This document shows, one piece after another, positions 1,645-23,716 of a stretch of DNA of 42,371 nt. The position numbers and the translations under genes were made by a program. The notes beneath the pieces were generated by a model. It did no database searches and was not told the origin of the DNA. It worked only from the letters and a program-made list of their open reading frames with translations. The stretch spans positions 1 to 42,371 of the IMG/VR virus record IMGVR_UViG_2778261056_000006. The stretch is one strand, 5' to 3'. Numbering within the stretch: position 1 is the stretch's first letter; every line of letters starts with the position of its first letter. The stretch comes from a virus (Duplodnaviria > Heunggongvirae > Uroviricota > Caudoviricetes).

Positions 1645-4600
1645 TTATGCCTGAGTACGCAGCGCTTCAAGGCGGCGCAGGTCGAAGTCGTTCAGTTCGT
1701 CGGTGTAGTCAGCAGTGATTGGCGCTGGCCATTCACCTGTGTCGAATCCGGTTGCGATATTGCGCATCGCTTTGCGGTACTCGAGCATACCCAGCTCCAG
1801 TAGTTCAGCGGATGCCTCGATGATGGCGATCCAGTGGTAGTTCTCGTCTTTGTTGACGAAAATCCAGAAGAACTGATCCAGCGCTGCGGTTTCGCAGTAC
1901 ATAGCCGCGCTCAGGTGATAATCACGTTCAATAATTTCCCGGTGTAGCCTGGCGCGCAGGCTTTCCTGCTTAACATTCCACATGCTGATGGTTTTCAGGT
2001 CTGCACCTATACGCACGCCATCCAGGTCGATCTCAAGGTCAGGGCGCACACGAACTTCCAAGCCCGTCTCCTCGTCAAAACCAAAGTAGCTCACCTCAAC
2101 GGCTCGGCTAGGGTGGGTCAGCAGCATGCCGGCGGTCGGGTGTGCCAGAAGCGCTTTTTGAATATTCAGCGCGGTGCTCAGCTGCTGGCGGGTGACCAGC
2201 ACTTTTCCTTCCGGGTTATCGCGCCAGGCATCCAGCAGTTCGTCGGCAAATACGGCATCTGGTTTGACTGCCTTCACGGCCTGGATCATGTCTGCTTTGG
2301 TACCGGACACTTTCAGTGGTGCCGGTTTCTGTGCTTCCTGAGCCACAAGGTCAGGGTTGATGATTGCCAACTGCTCCAGCAGCGCGTCACGGCTGCCGCT
2401 GGTTTTAACCGGCGGCGGCAGGGTGGCGTTGTACTCTTTAATGCATGCCTTCATTGCCGTCGCCGTCTGCTTCTGGTCACCATCAATACGCTGGAAGTCA
2501 GCTGGCAGCGCCATATAGTTCTGTGCCGTTTCTTCCAGGTTAGCGCCAAGCGGAACCTGCGGCGGCAGGGTGGCGTTGTACTCTTCCAGTAACACCTTGA
2601 TGTCGTCGGCAGACAGCAGCGCCGGCAGGCTGGCATTGTGCTCATCGATAAAGGCGCGCAGGGTCGCGGCCGTTGTGAATGCGCCTTCAGGGATCACCGG
2701 TTCAACGCTGAATTCTGCGTCCAGTAGTTCAGGCTGCAACGCCAGCGCATGCACCAAGTTGCCCATGTCCAGCACCGCTGAGCGCTCTTTGACGATGGTT
2801 TTCTCTACGTGGCGCGCATTGAAGTACATCAGCGAAACGCGCGCATCTTTCACCTGGGTTGAGCTGATGCCGTTGGCGGCGTGGTAAACCTCGTTTGGCA
2901 GCCCTTCATAGCGGCCTGGCTCGAAATAAGCGGGATAAACAACAGCCGGTTCGTCAGATTGCGCTTCTGGCTCGGTTTGTGCTGCAACTGGTTCGGTTTG
3001 GCTTACAGAATCGCTATTTTTGGCGACAGAATCCGTATTCTGGTTTACATCGTCCTTCTGGCTGGTATCTGACTCTTCACCAGACTCCAGACTGCTTTCG
3101 CCTGGCTGTACTTCATCACCAGCTTGTTTTTCATCACTGACAGTTTCTTGAACCTGCACATTGCTGGTGGTCTCCGTAGCCTTTTTCGTGCCATGAGTTG
3201 CTGAGTTCTGCAGCAAAGCCGTAACGTCGAATATTCCGTTGCCGACATTTTTAACCAGTTCTTGTTCGACTTTCTGCGGTTGTGCTGCCGCTTCCTCTGC
3301 GCGGCGGCGTGCTCCTTCTTCACGCACGCGTTGCAGGTTCTCTTCGTGAGTGCAGAAGGATTTGCGCGGAGACTCCTTACCTTCAGGTTGGGGAATTTCC
3401 TGTGCTGCGGGTTCAGCCTCATGCAACGGCAATAACTCGACCGCGGAATTGAACGCGGCTGTCATGGTCTGGTTAACAAATTCCAGGTGAGCGACAGGAG
3501 TTAAATGAATATTTTCCGGTGCGATACGTACCAGGTTAAAAATAGCCGTGCGGTTAACACCCAGAACGCCTGGCTGATTGCGCAGGATGTTGCTCCATGA
3601 TTTCCATGGTTCTTCTTTTTTGGTCACGATTTCTTTAGCGCGACGAAGAATGCTGCCCGGGATCTCGAAGTGGTTGAAGTCCATAGGCAGAAGGGCACAC
3701 GCAATCTCTAAATCGAGAGTGTCCAGTGTGTGGTGTGCGTCAGGTCCACGGTCAGTGACGTAACCGCCGTCGGCATTAGTGCCGGAATCAGTACGCTGCA
3801 CACTACTGATGCGATTACCGGCGGCCCATTCGCGAACGAGGATACCGCGGTCGATGTGATCTGTAGCGAACCACAATTTCAAAAACTGGATTAAGGTTGC
3901 GAGTTCAGGGATTTTTCCATCGACAGGGAAGACTTTCTTAACGGCATTCACGACTTTATGAATATCGTGCTCAATGGCTTTTTTGAATGCTTCCACATTC
4001 TCAGCTGCCAGCAGCAGGTTCTGGACGTACGCGTCATCGGTGTCCATCTCAAGGCGGACAATCTCATTTTTCTGCCCTGCGTCGATGTGATAGAGATATT
4101 CACCATCACCGATGAACTGAGCCAGTACGCGCTGGCGGAATGGCAGGGTGGCAACAACGATCAGGTTCGGTTGCTGTGTCTGCTGGGATTGCTCTTCGGT
4201 ATCGACTTCACCATCAACGACGCCACCTTCTGCCCGGCCGTTCTCGTCGGTCTGGATACCGTCCTCAACAGTGAGATCTTGACCCGTTGTAACGTCAGCA
4301 GCGTTGCTGGTTTCAGTTTTGAGCAACTGCAACTTACCACTGCGCCAGTCTTCTACCAGTTGATTGCGGTCACCGGCATCGGTGTTCACCCAGTCAGACA
4401 TGAATGCAGCGATCAATCTTGGTTCGTGCTCTTCGTCTGGTGTGAAAATGTCCTTAACCGCCCGAATCATTTTCCACTCAGCATTCAGGCTGAGTTTGGC
4501 GGTCGCGGGCACATCGTTCCTTGCCACAAGCAGGCTATGGAGATATGTATTGCCTTCATCCAGTGACATTTCGCTGGCAGCCAACTGCTGCTCTTTAGTG

Positions 4601-5034
4601 ACGTGGGTTTGGTATTTATCGTTCATCAGATGGACGGCAAAGCGGACCGCTGGAGTACGGTTTTCAACCGGGACAATTTCGGACGCAGTCGCATCTTCAA
4701 CGATTACGGTCGGAGTAGGTGTGTAGGGGGCGTCAACGGAACCAGTAGACACACCAGCGGCTTTTGGCAGCCAGGTGCGCCCATCGTCCTGAAGCTCGTA
4801 GCGATCACACCAGGTAAAATCAACTTCACCTTCTTTCGGCAGGCCGTCGACAACTGGGAAATCAGTGCGAATCGGTTTGGCGTAGTCCTTACCCCGACCT
4901 GTTTCGATACCTGCATCTTCCAGCGCAACATCCAGCATCAGATTGGCGCGAGCCTCGGTTTTAGCAGTGAACCAGACCACTGCATCTTGCTTTCCGGATT
5001 TCTGAGTGGCTTTAACCACATTAAAGAATTCCAT
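1645..5034 (-). CDS. recE: exodeoxyribonuclease VIII (RecE), enlarged variant
   Basis: 1129 aa; N-terminus (SGKQDAVVWF...FPVVDGLPKEGEVDFTWCDRYELQDDGRTW) and mid region (DRGILVREWAAGNRISSVQRTDSGTNADGGYVTDRG) closely match E. coli Rac RecE; C-terminal PD-(D/E)xK-like nuclease segment (RVRPDLEIDLDGVRIGADLKT). Confidence 0.8.
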   Translation of the reverse strand: MEFFNVVKATQKSGKQDAVVWFTAKTEARANLMLDVALEDAGIETGRGKDYAKPIRTDFPVVDGLPKEGEVDFTWCDRYELQDDGRTWLPKAAGVSTGSVDAPYTPTPTVIVEDATASEIVPVENRTPAVRFAVHLMNDKYQTHVTKEQQLAASEMSLDEGNTYLHSLLVARNDVPATAKLSLNAEWKMIRAVKDIFTPDEEHEPRLIAAFMSDWVNTDAGDRNQLVEDWRSGKLQLLKTETSNAADVTTGQDLTVEDGIQTDENGRAEGGVVDGEVDTEEQSQQTQQPNLIVVATLPFRQRVLAQFIGDGEYLYHIDAGQKNEIVRLEMDTDDAYVQNLLLAAENVEAFKKAIEHDIHKVVNAVKKVFPVDGKIPELATLIQFLKLWFATDHIDRGILVREWAAGNRISSVQRTDSGTNADGGYVTDRGPDAHHTLDTLDLEIACALLPMDFNHFEIPGSILRRAKEIVTKKEEPWKSWSNILRNQPGVLGVNRTAIFNLVRIAPENIHLTPVAHLEFVNQTMTAAFNSAVELLPLHEAEPAAQEIPQPEGKESPRKSFCTHEENLQRVREEGARRRAEEAAAQPQKVEQELVKNVGNGIFDVTALLQNSATHGTKKATETTSNVQVQETVSDEKQAGDEVQPGESSLESGEESDTSQKDDVNQNTDSVAKNSDSVSQTEPVAAQTEPEAQSDEPAVVYPAYFEPGRYEGLPNEVYHAANGISSTQVKDARVSLMYFNARHVEKTIVKERSAVLDMGNLVHALALQPELLDAEFSVEPVIPEGAFTTAATLRAFIDEHNASLPALLSADDIKVLLEEYNATLPPQVPLGANLEETAQNYMALPADFQRIDGDQKQTATAMKACIKEYNATLPPPVKTSGSRDALLEQLAIINPDLVAQEAQKPAPLKVSGTKADMIQAVKAVKPDAVFADELLDAWRDNPEGKVLVTRQQLSTALNIQKALLAHPTAGMLLTHPSRAVEVSYFGFDEETGLEVRVRPDLEIDLDGVRIGADLKTISMWNVKQESLRARLHREIIERDYHLSAAMYCETAALDQFFWIFVNKDENYHWIAIIEASAELLELGMLEYRKAMRNIATGFDTGEWPAPITADYTDELNDFDLRRLEALRTQA

Positions 5035-5174
5035 GTGAGATCCTCATTTTTGGGTGTTAGAATCCCCGGACCATTGATAGCGCCCATTGGGTTAACTTTG
5101 GTTTTAATGTTGTTTCCGGTGTAACTTTGGTCGGTGAGGCCGGACATGGCGGGCCCACTTCGGTGGGCTTTCGC

Positions 5175-5462
5175 TTAACTGACGGCTACGATCGCCTCAT
5201 TCATAAAATCTTGCTTGTATGTACGGTAGGTTCCCCAGCCGGCGTAATCGCTATCGCTGATTTTGAGTACCAGCAAGCTGATCTCCTCAATGGCGCAGTG
5301 CGGGCAATCAAACTTGCCAAGCACATAGCCACCGTCGAGAATGACTGTTGTTTCACCGTTTGTAGTTGAGTGAATAACGCCTGATACTTTCTTCTCGCAG
5401 TTGAATGCAGCCACTTCTTTATTCACTGCTTTCAGGTTCATTTCGATTTTTACGATTTCCAT
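5175..5462 (-). CDS. hypothetical early-left protein
   Basis: 95-aa ORF in the leftward early operon between recE and the PL-like promoter. Confidence 0.5.
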   Translation of the reverse strand: MEIVKIEMNLKAVNKEVAAFNCEKKVSGVIHSTTNGETTVILDGGYVLGKFDCPHCAIEEISLLVLKISDSDYAGWGTYRTYKQDFMNEAIVAVS

Positions 5463-5547
5463 AAAATCTCCAGTTGTTAAATTAAGGGTGTAAGAAGCCG
5501 CGCCAAATTAATGGCGAATTTTTCATTTCATATTTCAGGACTGCTAT

Positions 5548-5709
5548 TTAACTTTCGTGCGCCATCTGGTCGTATTCAGCGCATTGCTTAGAGCAATATT
5601 CTTTTTCTTTCTGTGCCAGTTGCGAACCGTTGAGATAGAGAAGGGTGCTCTTGATTACTTCCTCCGTTTTAACCGGCTTGCCGCAATATCCGCATTTCTT
5701 GTCTAACAT
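5548..5709 (-). CDS. small zinc-ribbon protein (YdaE-like position), absent from ORF track
   Basis: 53-aa ORF found by manual translation: MLDKKCGYCGKPVKTEEVIKSTLLYLNGSQLAQKEKEYCSKQCAEYDQMAHES; CxxC...CxxxC motif; strong SD GGAGG 5 nt upstream of ATG at 5709. Confidence 0.55.
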   Translation of the reverse strand: MLDKKCGYCGKPVKTEEVIKSTLLYLNGSQLAQKEKEYCSKQCAEYDQMAHES

Positions 5710-5720
5710 GACATCCTCCG

Positions 5721-6071
5721 CTAGTGGCTGAGTCCATGCCCCAGACCGTTCAGATAAACTTCAACCAGCAAATCCTTGGTGTAAGTCATCTCCACGCCGC
5801 GATGCAGATACAAACGTCCGCGAGCGTTAGCTGATGCCGTCCAGGTTGAGTCTTTGTGTTTGACGAGCATCCCCGGCTGAACTGCGCCGCGGTTTACCGT
5901 CTGTGTACCGTAGTGCTGATGAACCATGATGTTCTCCACTATTGCTGAGTGAACTTCGCTGGTGGTGCCGTGGTGCTGATCTTCACAGTTGAGCGTTTTA
6001 ACTCTGCAGTTCACCACCGCGAAGCTCACTCTGTGCTTTGCCCTTGTCGCCAGGCTGGCGGAACGTTTCAA
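5721..6071 (-). CDS. hypothetical protein, first gene of leftward operon (Kil-like position); start uncertain
   Basis: 116-aa ORF beginning with TTG; internal ATGs at residues 49 and 68 would give a 68- or 49-aa product; directly downstream of the PL-like promoter. Confidence 0.35.
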   Translation of the reverse strand: MKRSASLATRAKHRVSFAVVNCRVKTLNCEDQHHGTTSEVHSAIVENIMVHQHYGTQTVNRGAVQPGMLVKHKDSTWTASANARGRLYLHRGVEMTYTKDLLVEVYLNGLGHGLSH

Positions 6072-6170
6072 ACCTACTGCGCGTTAATCTCACCACCTCA
6101 TTCCGGTTTTCGTATGCCCCGGACGGCTACTTCGTGGGCGTCCTGCTTTGGTGGTTGTGTTGATGGAGTA

Positions 6171-6199
6171 AGTAAAACACCGCTTTACCATTAAGTCAA
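6171..6199 (-). promoter_or_regulatory. PL-like leftward promoter overlapped by operator OL (GTAAAACACCGCTTTAC at 6172-6188)
   Basis: On minus strand TTGACT(-35, 6199-6194)-17 bp-TTTACT(-10, 6176-6171); operator dyad GTAAA-N5-GCTTTAC overlaps spacer and -10; near-identical to the PR arrangement. Confidence 0.5.
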
Positions 6200-6261
6200 G
6201 CAATGCAGATTCAAAAGGTAAAGCATAGCTGTATGTTGGGCGAAATTTATCCAGATTAGAG

Positions 6262-17295: not shown

Positions 17296-17429
17296 CATTC
17301 GAATCCTATTTTGCCGATCACCTCCGCGTTCGTTGGCAACGATTGCGCTTATACCACTTTCCGGGCTCTGTGCTGACGGATTACCGAATACTGAAGAACT
17401 ACATCAAAACCATAGGCGGTGCAGTATGA
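17292..17429 (+). CDS. small ORF between ninG and Q (45 aa), absent from ORF track
   Basis: ATG 17292 overlaps the ninG stop (ATGA), strong SD AGGAGG 4 nt upstream, stop overlaps the Q-like start (ATGA); MTFESYFADHLRVRWQRLRLYHFPGSVLTDYRILKNYIKTIGGAV. Confidence 0.35.
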   Translation: MTFESYFADHLRVRWQRLRLYHFPGSVLTDYRILKNYIKTIGGAV

Positions 17430-18115
17430 ATACTCAATTTCTCGAATACGTGCGCCAGCAGTTGATGGTGGCCACCGCCGATTTAAGTGGTGCGACGAAA
17501 GGGCAGTTGATGGCGTGGCTTGAAAACGCGCAGTTCGATACGGGAACGTTTAAACGTAAAAAGCCTCGAGTGCTGGATGAAGTGACCGGGGAAATGATTA
17601 CGCTGGATAACCCGCCAATACCGGGCAAGCAGTCGCATGCCAAGGGTTCGCATATTCCCCTGGTGCAGCCGGTTGAATACTCCAGCGCATCGTGGCGCCG
17701 CGCACTGATGTCACTCGAAGAACACCAGAAAGCGTGGCTGCTATGGAACTATAGCGAGAACGTGCGCTGGTGCTATCAGGTGGAAATCACTCAATGGGCG
17801 TGGGCAGAGTTCCGGGAGCAGCTCGGCGCGAAGAAGGTGGCCGGCAAAACGATGGAGCGCCTGAAGAAGCTTGTCTGGCTCGCGGCTCAGGACGTGAAAG
17901 CAGAGCTGGCAGGGCGTGAGATGTACGAATATCAGGCGCTGGCGTCGCTGGTTGGCGTAACGCCAAAAAACTGGTCAGAGACCTTTACTGACCGCTGGGT
18001 TGAGATGCGCAGCATCTTCCTGCGACTGGATAGCGGGGCTTTATTGCAGGTTACGCGATCACGTTCACAACAAAAGGCGACAAATTTAGACTCAAGTCTT
18101 GCAAAACTGGATTGA
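17426..18115 (+). CDS. putative late-gene antiterminator (Q-like)
   Basis: 229 aa from ATG 17426; synteny (after ninG, before a promoter/terminator pair and the lysis genes); no Zn-finger Cys cluster, so family is uncertain. Confidence 0.5.
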   Translation: MNTQFLEYVRQQLMVATADLSGATKGQLMAWLENAQFDTGTFKRKKPRVLDEVTGEMITLDNPPIPGKQSHAKGSHIPLVQPVEYSSASWRRALMSLEEHQKAWLLWNYSENVRWCYQVEITQWAWAEFREQLGAKKVAGKTMERLKKLVWLAAQDVKAELAGREMYEYQALASLVGVTPKNWSETFTDRWVEMRSIFLRLDSGALLQVTRSRSQQKATNLDSSLAKLD

Positions 18116-18686: not shown

Positions 18687-19586
18687 ATGCCAAATTGGAT
18701 AGACGTGTTGGGCGAGATGGGTACTATTGCTCAACGTACACCAGCGGATGAGGTTCGCCACAAGTACTTACGAGAGTTGTCGAAGCATACAGGCCGAAAC
18801 GTAATTTCATATTACTCAGGCTTCCTCCAGAAGGGGGGGCCTGGGTTGCAGCATTTAATACAAATGTCAGATGACGATAAAAATGGTCTTATGTCAGCCA
18901 TTAACGGCTTAGACACGTCATTAGGGCTGGATATCTTGCTTCATACCCCAGGGGGAGATATTGCAGCATTGGAATCTATTGGTCATTATCTTCGTTCAAA
19001 ATTTGGGACCAATATCCGGGCAATTGTTCCTATGATCTCAATGAGTTGTGGGACCATGTTGGCTTGCTGTGCCGAACAGATTGTATTGGGCAAACAGTCA
19101 AATTTGGGGCCAATTGATCCGCAGCTTGGTGGTTTATCATCTCATGCGATCATAGAAGAGTATGAGCGAGCTAAGAAAGAGATTTCTGAAAATGCTGCAG
19201 CGATCCAATGGTGGCAATTTACTCTTCAAAAGCTAAACCCGACTCTCATTGGTGAATGTGAAAAGGCTATTGTTTGGGCTAATGAAATAGTACAAAAATG
19301 GCTGTGTACTGGTATGTTTGCAGGTCATGCTAACGCTCAAGATAAGGCTAAGCGAATTTGTGATGAGCTAAACAATCATCATACAACCTATGCGCATGCT
19401 AGACATATTCATCTGGATAAAGCGCAAAGCATTGGTTTGAACATTATGGAGCTGGAGAGCGACCAAACTCTGCAGGATCTTGTGCTGACTATACATCATT
19501 GCTACATGCATTCATTTGGTACGAGTCCTGCTGCGAAAATTATTGAAAATCATAATGGCAGCACGATGATGTGGAATATTCGCTAA
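18687..19586 (+). CDS. SDH-family ClpP/crotonase-fold serine protease
   Basis: 299 aa; LHTPGGD motif and overall pattern typical of S49/SDH ClpP-fold peptidases; sits between Q and the holin. Confidence 0.6.
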   Translation: MPNWIDVLGEMGTIAQRTPADEVRHKYLRELSKHTGRNVISYYSGFLQKGGPGLQHLIQMSDDDKNGLMSAINGLDTSLGLDILLHTPGGDIAALESIGHYLRSKFGTNIRAIVPMISMSCGTMLACCAEQIVLGKQSNLGPIDPQLGGLSSHAIIEEYERAKKEISENAAAIQWWQFTLQKLNPTLIGECEKAIVWANEIVQKWLCTGMFAGHANAQDKAKRICDELNNHHTTYAHARHIHLDKAQSIGLNIMELESDQTLQDLVLTIHHCYMHSFGTSPAAKIIENHNGSTMMWNIR

Positions 19587-19609
19587 ACGATATATCCTCG
19601 AATCACATA

Positions 19610-20076: not shown

Positions 20077-20344
20077 TCCGTCAGCGATGGTGAATGCAGG
20101 TATTTGTGCGGTCATCGTCCTTGTCCTGATGTTCTACCAGCGTGAAGGGGCAAGACATCGCCCCGCTATATCATTGCTGGCGTACTTCGTTGTGCTGGTT
20201 TATGCCAGCGTTCCATTCCGATATCTGTTCGGCCTCTACCAGGAGTCACACTGGATGGTGGTCATCGTAAACCTTCTTATTTGCGCTGCCGTGTTATGGG
20301 CTCGTGGGAATGTGGCGCGTCTCGTTGATACGCTGAGGCATTAA
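20063..20344 (+). CDS. second holin-like membrane protein
   Basis: 93 aa from ATG 20063 (SD GGAGGAGGGG), three hydrophobic segments, immediately upstream of the endolysin. Confidence 0.5.
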   Translation: MVTSDPSAMVNAGICAVIVLVLMFYQREGARHRPAISLLAYFVVLVYASVPFRYLFGLYQESHWMVVIVNLLICAAVLWARGNVARLVDTLRH

Positions 20345-20961
20345 TGAACCAATCACAATTTCAACAGGCGGCTGGTGTAAGCGCCGGGTTAGCTACGCGC
20401 TGGTTTCCGCACATTGACGCGGCAATGAAAGAGTTCGGCATTGTTAAGCCTGAAGACCAGGCAATGTTTATTGCTCAGTCAGGACATGAATCAGCGGGAT
20501 TCTCTGCGCTGGTGGAGAGCTTCAACTACACCCCAGCCGCTCTGCTGACCACATTTGGACGCCGCATTACGAACTATCAGGCATATATGCTTGGGCGTGA
20601 CAAAGAAAAAGGGCACGTAGCCAATCAGCCAGCCATTGCAAATCTGGTGTACAGCAATCGCCTCGGTAACAAAGCATCAGGCGATGGGTGGAAATATCGT
20701 GGCCGTGGGCTGATTCAGATTACCGGTCTTGATAATTACCGCCGCTGCGGAACGGGATTAAAACTGGATTTAGTCAGTAATCCTGAGTTGCTGGAAAAGG
20801 ATATCAACGCGGCACGTTCAGCTGCATGGTTCTACGCCACCAGCGGATGCCTGAGCTATTCCGGCGATCTGGTTCGCATCACCCAGATCATCAATGGTGG
20901 ACAGAACGGCATTAACGACCGTCGTGCACGCTACGCCAAAGCAAAAGCCGCACTGGTATGA
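20344..20961 (+). CDS. endolysin, glycoside hydrolase family 19 (chitinase-like lysozyme)
   Basis: 205 aa; AQSGHESAGF...YRGRGLIQITGLDNY pattern characteristic of GH19 phage endolysins. Confidence 0.8.
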   Translation: MNQSQFQQAAGVSAGLATRWFPHIDAAMKEFGIVKPEDQAMFIAQSGHESAGFSALVESFNYTPAALLTTFGRRITNYQAYMLGRDKEKGHVANQPAIANLVYSNRLGNKASGDGWKYRGRGLIQITGLDNYRRCGTGLKLDLVSNPELLEKDINAARSAAWFYATSGCLSYSGDLVRITQIINGGQNGINDRRARYAKAKAALV

Positions 20962-20968
20962 GGTCGCT

Positions 20969-21244
20969 ATGGGACTTGAAATGATTATCGGCCTGGCTGT
21001 TGCTGTGCTGGCTGCAATTGCAGGTGCTTTTGGTCTGGGTAAATCGCGCGGTACTAACATCGCTGAGACAAAAGCGGACCAGCAACGCACTGAAGAACGT
21101 GCAACAGCTACTGAAGCTGTTGCTGAACGCCGGGTAGAAACAACGAAAGAGGCCAGCAATGTACAGCAGAGTGTTAACCATATGCTTGGCGACGATGTTG
21201 ATCGTGAGCTGCGCAACAACTGGACCCGCCCCGGTAGTCGTTGA
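20969..21244 (+). CDS. i-spanin (Rz-like)
   Basis: 91 aa from ATG 20969; N-terminal TM helix then charged coiled-coil-like periplasmic region; the ORF track's longer form starts inside the endolysin gene. Confidence 0.55.
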   Translation: MGLEMIIGLAVAVLAAIAGAFGLGKSRGTNIAETKADQQRTEERATATEAVAERRVETTKEASNVQQSVNHMLGDDVDRELRNNWTRPGSR

Positions 21245-21410
21245 TACCGCCTGTGATTGGGTAAAGCCCATCTATCTTACTGACCACGATATTGCCGTTA
21301 TGGATAAGCAGACGAAGCGCGACATCCTAGTGCATAACAAAGCATGGAAGGTGAACTGTAATCCCAAAAAGGTAAAGACGAGCACTCTAAAATTTGTGGA
21401 CAAGCCATGA
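21159..21410 (+). CDS. o-spanin lipoprotein (Rz1-like), overlapping the i-spanin 3' end in another frame
   Basis: Signal peptide with lipobox (LIVSC), Pro-rich mature region with conserved Cys; typical overlapped spanin pair; start may be an internal ATG. Confidence 0.55.
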   Translation: MYSRVLTICLATMLIVSCATTGPAPVVVDTACDWVKPIYLTDHDIAVMDKQTKRDILVHNKAWKVNCNPKKVKTSTLKFVDKP

Positions 21411-21472
21411 AGTACCCGTTATCCTTTCTATAGGATTCCAAAGGAATACCATAGGAAACCAAAGGTAACATT

Positions 21473-21724
21473 ATGGCAAAAACATATTTCCCCATCGAAG
21501 ACTCTGTAGAGTTAGTGACAGCATCTAAACCACACCCAAGTAACACGCATTACAAAGTTTCTCGTGGAACTGAAATCTGGGATGGTGAAAATGTTGAGGT
21601 AATCAAAGTTCAGATGGTTTACAACGGCGAAGTGGCCGGAAGAAGAAGCCCTTCATATCCCGTTGGGACTGATGATTATCAACGTGTCCATTTAGCTATA
21701 GAAAAAATCATCAGGTCAAGATAA
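21473..21724 (+). CDS. hypothetical protein (post-lysis moron)
   Basis: 83-aa ORF in AT-rich DNA followed by its own terminator. Confidence 0.5.
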   Translation: MAKTYFPIEDSVELVTASKPHPSNTHYKVSRGTEIWDGENVEVIKVQMVYNGEVAGRRSPSYPVGTDDYQRVHLAIEKIIRSR

Positions 21725-21730
21725 AAGCAA

Positions 21731-21755
21731 AAGGTCGCTTAGGCGGCCTTTTTTC
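21731..21755 (+). terminator. intrinsic terminator
   Basis: GGTCGC-ttag-GCGGCC followed by T6. Confidence 0.7.
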
Positions 21756-21962
21756 ATCGATAATACATTCACTGGGTTATATCCAATCCCGTGGTTGAGA
21801 GGCATGCTGTATTGCTACTCGACTAACTGCATTACAGAAAGCATTCACTGAGTGCCTGCGATAATGCAAATTGACGGACTCGTCAGAAATCCTTTACAAA
21901 ACATGATGTTGAATTAAATTGTTGCGTGGGTTAGCTTGAGGTTAGTTCACACAGGAGGTCAT

Positions 21963-22205
21963 ATGTCACAATCAGCGCTTGCTACTGAATTAGAACTCAC
22001 TGACGATGAGTTGGATTCCATACCTCTATCACCTGAAGACCTTGAGGAGAATACAGGGCATTCAGGCGATATGGTATATGAGTACTATTTCTATGTTCCC
22101 GATACTACCCCTGAAGATATTCTTAGCAAGAAAGGATGGGAAATAGGTGAGTGTGTTTACTTATCTATTAATGTTTTTGATGACCCGGATTCGGAGCAAG
22201 AATAG
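21963..22205 (+). CDS. small highly acidic protein (DNA-mimic-like composition)
   Basis: 80 aa from ATG 21963 (SD AGGAGG); by eye about a quarter of residues are Asp/Glu with only two Lys; own terminator. Confidence 0.5.
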   Translation: MSQSALATELELTDDELDSIPLSPEDLEENTGHSGDMVYEYYFYVPDTTPEDILSKKGWEIGECVYLSINVFDDPDSEQE

Positions 22206-22221
22206 AACGATAAGCATAATG

Positions 22222-22245
22222 CACCGCCTCCGGGCGGTTTTTTTA
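22222..22245 (+). terminator. intrinsic terminator
   Basis: CCGCC-tccg-GGCGG followed by T7. Confidence 0.75.
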
Positions 22246-22266
22246 TGTCAGTACACTGGAGCGTTT

Positions 22267-22908
22267 ATGGCAACACTCAAAGACCTTTCTCAGCAATTAA
22301 AGAAGGTACAAAAGCAGGTGCCATATGCTACAGCACTAGCTATGACAAAAGTTGTTCGTCAAATAGAAACGGCACAGAAAACAGCGTTCGAACGACATCT
22401 GGAGAGCCCGACACCGTTTACCGTTAAATCAGTTGGTTCGGTGGCGGCAAGGAAGAACAACCTGACTGCAAAGGTTTTTGTCCGCGATACCGCGGCTGGT
22501 TATCTGGAACCATTCGAGTTAGGTGGAGAGCATAAGCTCAATAGCCAAGCGCTATTGAACCCCAAGAACGTCAAGCTAAACAAATACGGCAACATGCCGC
22601 GTAATAAGCTCTCACAGCTCAAAGCAAAGCCAAACGTATTTATTGGTGACGTTGGTGGCGTGAATGCCGTGTGGCAGAGAAAAAAGCCGAAAATCAAAAA
22701 AGGGAAGAAACGGGCAAAACGTTCTCCGAACGGCACGCGCAGAGACAAGATTAAGCAACCTGCACCAAAATTGCTCATTCGGTTTGGAGACGCGCTTCCA
22801 GTCAAACCAACGCTCGGCTATATGGACAGGGCAAACACCATGGTCAACGCATTGTTACCCTCAGCGCTGCACCAGGCGATTGCTGAGGCGATCAGCTCGG
22901 CCAGATAG
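22267..22908 (+). CDS. hypothetical basic protein upstream of cos
   Basis: 213 aa from ATG 22267; Lys/Arg-rich centre (KKPKIKKGKKRAKR); the ORF track's upstream extension is discounted. Confidence 0.5.
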   Translation: MATLKDLSQQLKKVQKQVPYATALAMTKVVRQIETAQKTAFERHLESPTPFTVKSVGSVAARKNNLTAKVFVRDTAAGYLEPFELGGEHKLNSQALLNPKNVKLNKYGNMPRNKLSQLKAKPNVFIGDVGGVNAVWQRKKPKIKKGKKRAKRSPNGTRRDKIKQPAPKLLIRFGDALPVKPTLGYMDRANTMVNALLPSALHQAIAEAISSAR

Positions 22909-22998
22909 CCCCCCAGGGGTTTTGGGTCCTTCCTGAGCCTTTTGTAAGGCACGGGCATTGCGCGCCGCGGTGTTTTCCTAGCTACAACTTTCAGATTT

Positions 22999-23150
22999 GT
23001 GTCCCATGTCCCACCTCTGGCGATCATTACGGACACCTCGCCAGCTCTGGCTATTCCAGTTTATTCCAGTGGGACATTCTGGTGGGACATGGCAAAAATG
23101 TCCCAGGCGAATGTCCCACCCCAGAAAATGTCCCAGGTGATGTCCCATGA
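22999..23150. repeat. cos region: array of at least 8 GTCCCA(N)/TGGGAC motifs in both orientations plus a CTGGCG-N16-CGCCAG dyad (candidate cosB and cosN)
   Basis: Motifs at 23001, 23008, 23069(rev), 23082(rev), 23098, 23111, 23128, 23140, directly upstream of and overlapping the small-terminase start. Confidence 0.55.
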
Positions 23151-23716
23151 CCACGATGAACCAGAGTCAGTACGCACAACATTCAGGTGTGGATCGCAAA
23201 ACAATTGGTCGGTGGATTAAAGCCGGGCGCTTCATTGTGATGGACGGAGACCTGATTGACGTAGAGGCCAGCGATGCGGCATTGAAGAAAAACCGCGATG
23301 GCAAAGACCCGCGCGCCTCGAACGCGAAGAAAAAGAAAACTCCCGTCGTTAGCGATAACGATGATGACGGTGATGAAATCAATAAAACTGTCCGCCAGAT
23401 AATGCTCACTGAAGGGGCAGATCTTTCGAGAGAGGAAGCGGGACGTATCCGCGAGAATTACATGGCCCTGCAGGCAAAGCTGCAGTATGAAAAAGACAGC
23501 GGCCAGCTTATTGAGCTGACAGCAGCCGAGGAGGTTTTATTCAACGCCTTTCGCCAACAGCGTGATGCCTGGCTTAACTGGCCGTCCAGGGTGGCGCCGC
23601 TAATGGCTGCTGATCTGGATGTACCGGCGGACAGGATGACAGAGGTGCTGATTGAACATGTCCACAAACACATCTCAGTCCTCGGAGAGCCAGAGTTTAA
23701 CCCGGCAGAAGATTGA
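23147..23716 (+). CDS. terminase small subunit (Nu1-like)
   Basis: 189 aa; N-terminal HTH (SQYAQHSGVDRKTIGRWIKAGRF) comparable to lambda Nu1; overlaps the start of the large subunit as in lambda. Confidence 0.6.
   Translation: MTTMNQSQYAQHSGVDRKTIGRWIKAGRFIVMDGDLIDVEASDAALKKNRDGKDPRASNAKKKKTPVVSDNDDDGDEINKTVRQIMLTEGADLSREEAGRIRENYMALQAKLQYEKDSGQLIELTAAEEVLFNAFRQQRDAWLNWPSRVAPLMAADLDVPADRMTEVLIEHVHKHISVLGEPEFNPAED

Follow-up and report, generated by a model that had tools for sequence, protein, structure and literature searches.

The Caudoviricetes record IMGVR_UViG_2778261056_000006 in IMG/VR (42,371 nucleotides [nt], analyzed as one stretch and hereafter called the window) is a lambda-like temperate phage genome with a gpA-type terminase and a contractile tail. 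Between its lysis and terminase genes it carries a small gene for a very acidic protein of 80 amino acids (aa) (MSQSALATELELTDDELDSIPLSPEDLEENTGHSGDMVYEYYFYVPDTTPEDILSKKGWEIGECVYLSINVFDDPDSEQE). The protein belongs to a family whose domain occurs in free form on mobile elements of three kinds; the same domain is part of, or lies next to, abortive-infection (Abi) modules, likewise of three kinds. We tentatively read the protein as a counter-defence protein acting on Abi-type effectors, a reading that is a real possibility, though somewhat short of probable.

The domain is 42 to 49% identical on HerA and other defence-linked proteins. (i) In Alteromonas sp. a30 (locus L028, positions 3113 to 6219), a SIR2 gene (PADLOC E value, 1.6e-111) is followed by a gene (4171 to 6219) for a 682-aa HerA, residues 5 to 602 of which match the HerA profile (PADLOC E value, 9.4e-196) and the last ~80 residues of which are the acidic domain (49% identity to the window protein; E value, 4e-19). 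(ii) Five proteins (P0098, P0040, P0057, P0020, and P0028) join an N-terminal acidic domain to a C-terminal HEPN domain of the RiboL-PSP type. P0098 scores 36.9 bits against RiboL-PSP, above the Pfam cut-off of 28.4 bits, and P0057 and P0040 score below threshold; an Rx4H motif can be read in the sequences of P0040, P0057, P0020, and P0028. The island that holds the P0057 gene also contains GmrSD_C, an AAA ATPase, and a Prok-E2/ThiF/JAB gene, and the P0098 gene adjoins a MazE-PIN pair. (iii) In P0080 and P0078, an N-terminal segment resembling a helix-turn-helix (HTH) precedes the acidic domain (48% identity), and both lie directly downstream of proteins similar to PD-T4-5 (PADLOC, 3.5e-16 and 9.7e-28), an experimentally found single-gene defence that is a distant relative of AbiF/D (PMC9519451). 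The two PD-T4-5-like proteins are 27% identical to each other and share an RNRxxHHE motif; the one in locus L017 also matches Pfam Abi_2 at 32.3 bits, the only one of the pair above the cut-off. Both loci (L017, 629 to 2141; L018, 5207 to 6762) consist of the PD-T4-5-like gene, the gene for the HTH-like segment plus acidic domain, and an abutting gene of 119 to 135 aa, and these third genes have no detectable homology to each other.

Beyond phages and defence loci, the domain is found tagged with a zinc ribbon on conjugative Vibrio and Photobacterium plasmids, as on pVPS91 of Vibrio parahaemolyticus (L064, 6773 to 7162), and on a 5-kb mobilisable ColKP3 plasmid of Enterobacter roggenkampii (L065, 2773 to 3156). 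On the latter, it is the only gene other than those for replication and mobilisation and one further hypothetical gene. In Aeromonas, the stand-alone gene belongs to an integrase island, where its neighbour encodes a DUF4145 protein weakly similar to PD-T7-4. No association with restriction-modification (R-M) or bacteriophage exclusion (BREX) genes appears in any genomic context seen.

The gene was first described, from the letters of the window, as an open reading frame (ORF) with an 80-aa product, and PGAP/RefSeq makes the identical call (WP_016245909.1, hypothetical protein) in Escherichia coli prophages whose cassette is 100% identical. Across seven close homologues, pN (nonsynonymous differences per site) is 0.05 to 0.22 against a pS (synonymous) of 0.25 to 0.91, and dN/dS is 0.04 to 0.18 where computable, synonymous sites being saturated; this pattern indicates a real gene under purifying selection. 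What had been estimated by eye as about a quarter Asp and Glu with almost no basic residues proves on counting to be 22 of 80 residues (27.5%), with two Lys, no Arg, and one His (Lys plus Arg, 2.5%); the computed isoelectric point is 4.05, and the net charge at pH 7 is about −20. The strong Shine-Dalgarno sequence and the terminator assigned to the gene are likewise present. A GGAG-type Shine-Dalgarno sequence is retained at the equivalent position in the homologues, and the terminator is a six-pair GC-rich hairpin with a T-run, whose 46-nt context (22205 to 22250) folds at −16.5 kcal/mol (z, −3.3). The terminator hairpin AACCGCCTCCGGGCGG and its T-run also lie 3′ of the gene in L003, L006, and L039 to L042, and different but equivalent hairpins replace it in L001 and L005.

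By sequence, the protein has a single family match, to PHROG 31861, whose function is unassigned (E value, 1.2e-25; 90.4 bits; residues 4 to 79 against profile positions 5 to 80 of 83). Pfam (E values up to 1), NCBIfam, and PADLOC give no family for it, including Ocr, ArdA, and PF24729, and neither “phrog_31861” nor the family motifs occur in the full-text literature searched. A direct search of 5.8 billion proteins returned 8 close relatives (63 to 99% identity); a profile search of 1.84 billion representatives returned 60 matches at an E value of ≤1e-3, 22 of them below 1e-10; and a second indexed search located the family in Klebsiella, Pantoea, Ewingella, Aeromonas, Vibrio, Shewanella, and Piscirickettsia. 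The protein is matched at 100% in Kluyvera sichuanensis and in four IMG/VR uncultivated virus genomes (UViGs), and the family as a whole is found only in prophages, UViGs, plasmids, and chromosomes. Its signature is LAxxLxLTxEEL ... E(D/N)TGSSGEMxYxYYFxVPExTPxEILxKKGWxVGxxI, with W59, G62, and L54 invariant. Acidic residues recur at fixed columns (14 to 16, 18, 36, 47, 52, 63, 73 to 74, and the tail), and almost all members are 18 to 30% Asp and Glu; the high negative charge with few basic residues that marks the DNA-mimic class is thus seen in this protein and across the family. Several Pantoea species (L026 to L033) have diverged chromosomal copies of 74 to 77 aa that lack the GSSGEM loop and lie in conserved neighbourhoods, next to genes for a small secreted protein and cold-shock-like genes.

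Two AlphaFold models, one from alignment A1 (8 sequences; predicted local distance difference test [pLDDT], 75.8; predicted template modeling score [pTM], 0.58) and one from alignment A3 (41 sequences; pLDDT, 79.8; pTM, 0.60), agree in predicting two short N-terminal helices, a beta-beta-alpha-beta unit resting on the YxYYFxVP/W59 core, and a disordered acidic tail. We take the product to be a cytoplasmic, very acidic alpha/beta domain, and its family is undescribed. Searched with a profile built from 41 members, PDB yields no chain below an E value of 0.18, and no fold relative of the protein appears in PDB or BFVD. The initial annotation had filed the protein with Ocr-like DNA mimics directed against restriction; this filing finds no support, as there is no match to the Pfam families for Ocr or ArdA, no sequence relative in PDB, and, in a predicted fold with three short strands, no match to Ocr, ArdA, or any solved DNA mimic. 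Its broader suggestion of a small acidic anti-defence factor fares better, drawing comparative support from a mobile accessory gene, an Acb2/Tad1 neighbour, and a domain shared with defence proteins, none of which points to type I R-M or BREX as the target in preference to Abi effectors.

Markers are recognisable in ~40 loci of prophages and UViGs, and in most of these the order is holin–endolysin–spanin, acidic gene, and then the small and large terminase genes. This order is independent of the endolysin type (GH19, GH108, or T4-type lysozyme) and spans at least five terminase types, among them gpA/DUF1441; Terminase_2 with an unclassified large subunit; Terminase_2 with Terminase_6; and Terminase_4 with TerL_ATPase and HNH. 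The other genes of the lysis-to-terminase interval are almost all singletons, and the interval is therefore a hypervariable accessory slot; a position kept across such varied modules argues against a function in lysis or packaging and for a moron. In three phage lineages (L006/L007, L039, and L040), the gene directly upstream belongs to the Acb2/Tad1-hairpin type (in L006, Pfam 65.3 bits; E value, 5.6e-18). Relatives 97 to 99% identical to the window (L036, 6930 to 7524; L038; L021; and E. coli 2018-10-1CC, NZ_AP021894.1, which is L066, 5097 to 5600) have ~590 extra bases in place of window positions 22895 to 22923. These encode, on the minus strand, a protein of ~167 aa with a signal-peptide-like N terminus (MGNNIIKITFVAAVLASPIAHAQ...), a gene absent from the window and placed like bor of lambda.

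Taken with its control signals, the acidic gene appears to be a self-contained, horizontally mobile moron cassette in a low-GC island: a boundary hairpin, a 16-bp palindrome, a predicted sigma-70 promoter, a Shine-Dalgarno sequence, the ORF, and an intrinsic terminator follow one another in that order. The GC content of the ORF is 40.7%, against 51.1% for the window, and that of positions 21280 to 22400 is 41 to 43%, against 50 to 57% in the flanks. The cassette is present in 8 of 5,426 complete E. coli genomes, and in a Kluyvera sichuanensis prophage (L021) it has a different left flank, homology to the window starting at 21820, with the hairpin element. The palindrome, promoter, and terminator are conserved with the gene in phages whose flanks are otherwise unrelated. 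An own predicted promoter and terminator, a deviant GC content, and presence or absence among relatives are the features by which morons are recognised, and the cassette appears to combine them all.

The palindrome (TTGACGGACTCGTCAG) had been noticed in the initial annotation and is real, with five perfect pairs, but it lies at 21871 to 21886 rather than at 21862 to 21875, 10 nt farther to the right. Within the window alone, neither it nor the promoter rises above chance (two palindrome matches at ≤2 mismatches, against 2.0 expected; two promoter-like sites, against 3.2 expected), and we call both real because they are conserved across loci. An exact TTGACG-N4-CGTCAA occurs once in each of 15 related loci, the distance from palindrome to ATG is 84 to 94 nt throughout the loci examined, including those with a protein identity below 50% (43 to 50%), and the 4-nt spacer varies (GACT, GGCT, ACGT, AAAT, GCAT, and others) while the arms are retained. 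It is presumed to be a regulator-binding site. An operator for the prophage repressor is unlikely, since the 42-kb window contains a single copy of the palindrome; the other match, with two mismatches, falls inside a large ORF.

We compared the spacing of palindrome and promoter in the window (21871 to 21937) with that in L008, L015, L047, L049, L053, L054, L056, and L060. Close relatives, including the window, have a promoter of the form TTGAC(T/A)-17-TA(T/G)CTT (group A), and more distant ones have TTTACA-17-TGnT(T/G)A(A/T/G)CT, with an extended −10 (group B). The gap from palindrome to −35 is 12 nt in group B and 21 to 23 nt (mode, 22) in group A. This difference of about one helical turn hints that whatever factor binds the palindrome has to stay on one side of the helix with respect to RNA polymerase. 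The extra 10 nt of group A include a TATAAA lying 17 to 19 nt downstream of TTGACG, so a second promoter could use the left palindrome arm as its −35. The proposal that TTGACG serves as a −35 is possible in relatives, where the −35-like arm has its TATAAA partner, but that partner is degenerate in the window (TTACAA), and TTGAAT-17-TAGCTT is the better conserved pair.

The left boundary of the cassette is a hairpin with the consensus (G/C)CATTACA(G/A)-[8-bp variable stem and loop]-(T/C)GATAATG(C/G). It is single-copy in the window, where it folds at −13.9 kcal/mol (z, −3.1), and 17 distinct copies were found in 23 loci, all on the plus strand and all between small accessory genes of the lysis-to-terminase slot. 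When 15 copies are aligned, 97.1% of cells are paired (33 to 43% in slid controls), and 8 of the 14 pairs show compensatory changes; U-G wobbles suggest that the structure forms at the RNA level. The element has no Rfam match. About 96 further complete E. coli genomes, including that of Nissle 1917, match the query only at this hairpin, which may be a cassette-boundary, RNA-processing, or recombination element.

Features of the window and further copies of the boundary hairpin (positions are those of the window unless a locus is named)
Feature	Position	Strand	Remarks
Q antiterminator	17333-18115		PF06323, E 1.7e-101
SDH-type ClpP-like serine protease gene	18687-19586	+	PF01972, E 2.2e-21; between Q and holins
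Two holins			Between SDH-type protease gene and GH19 endolysin
GH19 endolysin	20344-20961
Spanin genes	up to 21410
83-aa ORF	21473-21724	+	Own terminator
Terminator of 83-aa ORF	21729-21752		−14.5 kcal/mol, z −3.7
Conserved hairpin, ~39 nt	21829-21867	+	GCATTACAG-[variable 8-bp stem]-CGATAATGC; left boundary of cassette
Palindrome TTGACG-GACT-CGTCAG	21871-21886	.	Five perfect pairs, sixth mismatched; presumed regulator-binding site
Predicted sigma-70-type promoter	21909-21914 (−35), 21932-21937 (−10)	+	TTGAAT, 17-nt spacer, TAGCTT; called on conservation; start site predicted near 21944
Shine-Dalgarno sequence AGGAGG	21953-21958	+	4 nt before ATG
Acidic 80-aa ORF	21963-22205	+	Stop codon included
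Intrinsic terminator ACCGCC-TCCG-GGCGGT + TTTTTTT	22223-22245	+	Stem 22223-22238, T7 22239-22245
213-aa “minor tail protein” gene	22267-22908	+	PHROG 1924, E 5e-60
cos-like repeat block	about 23000-23150		GTGGGACAT / ATGTCCCAC; direct and inverted copies, dense array
Small terminase	23147-23716		PHROG 57
Large terminase, gpA-type			E 2e-78 and 1.9e-64; lambda-family portal alongside
Other hairpin copies	L001 7866, L003 8704, L005 869, L006 8291 and 8645, L008 8140/8450/10315
Other hairpin copies	L024 6281, L039 6291, L041 5543 and 6374, L055 4466

Three genes separate the spanins from the small terminase in the window: the 83-aa ORF, the acidic ORF, and the 213-aa gene. The GTGGGACAT repeats just upstream of the small terminase gene are presumably the terminase-binding sites of cos. 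The acidic gene, placed just upstream of cos in the initial annotation, is indeed within ~0.75 to 0.9 kb of this region, but it is not adjacent, since the 213-aa gene lies between. That gene, hypothetical in the PGAP annotation, is isolated before cos and far from the tail module (about 31 to 42 kb, with a contractile tail sheath), and it has a weak match to tail-completion/Neck1 proteins. The 83-aa ORF shares the low-GC island with the acidic gene; Pfam, NCBIfam, and PADLOC assign it to no family, its PHROG match is at chance level, and it co-occurs with the acidic gene only in near-identical phages. A toxin-antitoxin pair of these two ORFs was rejected because they have separate terminators and are not co-conserved. 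Nor does the acidic gene resemble that of a type II antitoxin, as it stands alone between two terminators and the 80-aa protein has no HTH. Farther upstream, the gene for the SDH-type protease lies in a low-GC stretch (41 to 44% over 19000 to 19600) and looks like another inserted accessory gene. An Rfam scan of 21200 to 23200 gave no family except a chance miRNA-like match in the cos repeats.

From the gene, its cassette and family, the shared domain, and its contexts, we infer binding, inhibition, a target, and a timing as follows. In the simplest mechanism, the domain on effectors would be a regulatory module, either auto-inhibitory or a sensor, and the mobile-element copy would use the same interface in trans. 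The free domain would sit where the effector-attached copy binds, a site that might be a regulatory or homotypic surface or a nucleic-acid-binding site met by an acidic pseudo-substrate, and its binding would keep nucleic-acid-directed Abi effectors off. Its own promoter could drive synthesis of the protein once the cos-proximal end of the DNA has entered the cell. The Rz-side end of lambda DNA is packaged last and leaves the capsid first, so a sigma-70 cassette no more than 1 kb away from it could be expressed at once. A second round of synthesis would draw on the Q-antiterminated late transcript, on which Q-modified polymerase would read through terminators, just before terminase and structural proteins, which are common Abi triggers, accumulate. 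We favour inhibition because of the Acb2/Tad1 neighbour, because plasmids carry the domain as cargo, because an orphan antitoxin-like phage gene is known to counter the defence system DarTG1 (PMC11825919), and because acidity would suit a pseudo-substrate for a DNA translocase or RNase. As a further precedent, T7 Gp5.9, a small inhibitor of RecBCD, evokes a physical response from a type III Sir2-HerA (PMC13434337). More specifically, the domain could be a shared arms-race module, in which free copies jam, or are caught by, the Abi effectors that carry it (a “domain-sharing decoy”), and would then define a new anti-defence family; this form of the idea seems doubtful.

Several points weigh against a counter-defence function. 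Only one HerA fusion turned up when 185,579 species genomes were searched with the chosen patterns; the HTH and zinc-ribbon assignments fall below Pfam thresholds; and confidence in the models is only moderate (pLDDT, 79.8). The protein has no homology to any characterised anti-defence protein, megablast and tblastn matched neither the locus nor two members of the family to any of 50,697 GenBank phage records, and the family motifs are not in the supplements of three anti-defence surveys, a weak point, as the sequences may not be there. The Pantoea copies lie among housekeeping genes with no phage markers. The domain on HerA and HEPN proteins could, moreover, be a sensor tripped by the phage protein, with the opposite outcome. 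Finally, morons that are expressed in the lysogen to the benefit of the host typically have an autonomous promoter and terminator as their hallmark, although such a promoter does not contradict counter-defence.

This last point leads to a rather unlikely alternative, in which the gene serves the lysogen: expressed from its own promoter in the prophage, the product would work for the host and prophage together, for example as an adaptor or regulatory subunit of host Abi effectors, or as an exclusion factor binding a protein of superinfecting phages. The classic moron architecture and low GC content would fit, as would a slot that hosts other morons (including the minus-strand secreted protein of the 97-to-99%-identical relatives), the bacterial homes of the domain in defence proteins and defence islands, and the chromosomal copies retained in Pantoea. 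An 80-aa domain without an effector cannot, however, defend alone, and a lysogen-serving role sits badly with carriage on plasmids, one of them a 5-kb mobilisable plasmid that has no other cargo. The phage neighbour, too, is an Acb2/Tad1-like gene of the type directed against the cyclic-oligonucleotide-based antiphage signalling system (CBASS) rather than a defence gene, and the contents of the slot are not uniformly defensive.

It is less probable still that the protein is a generic DNA mimic of the functional type of Ocr and ArdA, acting against type I R-M, BREX, or similar systems, with the HerA and HEPN fusions being guard sensors triggered by the phage protein. The charge of about −20, the Asp and Glu content with its conserved acidic columns, and a position ~0.75 to 0.9 kb from the cos-like region under an own promoter all suit a mimic, and the sensing of anti-defence proteins by defence systems is an established concept. 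Yet sequence and fold relate the protein to no solved mimic, no context brings in R-M or BREX, and what is most conserved is the aromatic core, the GSSGEM loop, W59, G62, and P46, which suggests a specific protein-protein interface and not a charge array only. As for an accessory role in lysis or packaging, as a modulator of holin or spanin or a cofactor of cos or terminase, the conserved position from spanin to small terminase in most marker-bearing loci speaks for it, and we consider it most improbable. That position persists with unrelated holin and endolysin types and with five or more unrelated terminase systems, of the cos as well as the headful kind. Many related phages lack the gene, it turns up on plasmids and in defence proteins, and it has its own predicted promoter and terminator; such a role was rejected on the diversity of the flanking modules.

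Were the counter-defence reading correct, the family would be an uncharacterised counter-defence family of gammaproteobacterial phages and plasmids, whose likely targets (SIR2-HerA, HEPN, and Abi_2 effectors) could be named beforehand from domain sharing, which is unusual for an orphan 80-aa protein, and a function would be assigned to an unannotated extra domain on HerA and HEPN defence proteins. Whatever the protein does, the locus shows a portable moron cassette whose presumed operator is conserved, and a boundary hairpin, with covarying pairs, that is found repeatedly between the accessory genes of E. coli, Klebsiella, and related prophages.

Among known systems, T7 Ocr (gp0.3) and ArdA are likewise small, very acidic, and borne on mobile elements, with genes at the first-entering DNA end under host-type promoters. 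Ocr and ArdA are helical or elongated dimers, and the Ocr dimer mimics bent B-DNA, whereas the acidic protein is modeled as an alpha/beta domain dissimilar to both. Its domain is, in addition, built into defence effectors, and we know of no case in which Ocr or ArdA is such a built-in part. Abi toxins of the CapRel-SJ46 type offer a parallel of another kind, in that a small extra domain sits on a toxic effector, as in the domain-HEPN and HerA-domain proteins described here. The CapRel domain senses a capsid protein; it has no homology to the acidic domain, and to our knowledge, no free phage-borne homologue of it exists.

In its genomic setting, the cassette is closest to lambda bor and the other morons between Rz and cos, with which it shares the slot, an own promoter and terminator, a deviant composition, and a presence/absence polymorphism; the moron concept of Hendrix and Juhala covers the genes of this lambdoid interval. 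The bor gene, on the minus strand, encodes a lipoprotein acting on the cell surface, whereas the acidic gene is on the plus strand and its predicted cytoplasmic product is linked by homology to intracellular defence effectors. The Acb2/Tad1 sponges resemble the acidic protein as small phage accessory proteins, and a gene like theirs is its immediate upstream neighbour in three lineages, but it lacks a PF24729 match and has no evident nucleotide-binding features. In the counter-defence against DarTG1 (PMC11825919) and in antitoxin mimics of the T4 Dmd type, there is homology to a defined antitoxin with known activity, whereas the protein described here is an 80-aa domain of which no enzymatic activity is expected; the arrangement we propose is nevertheless of the same kind, in that a free phage copy of a toxin-neutralising module would keep the toxin off.

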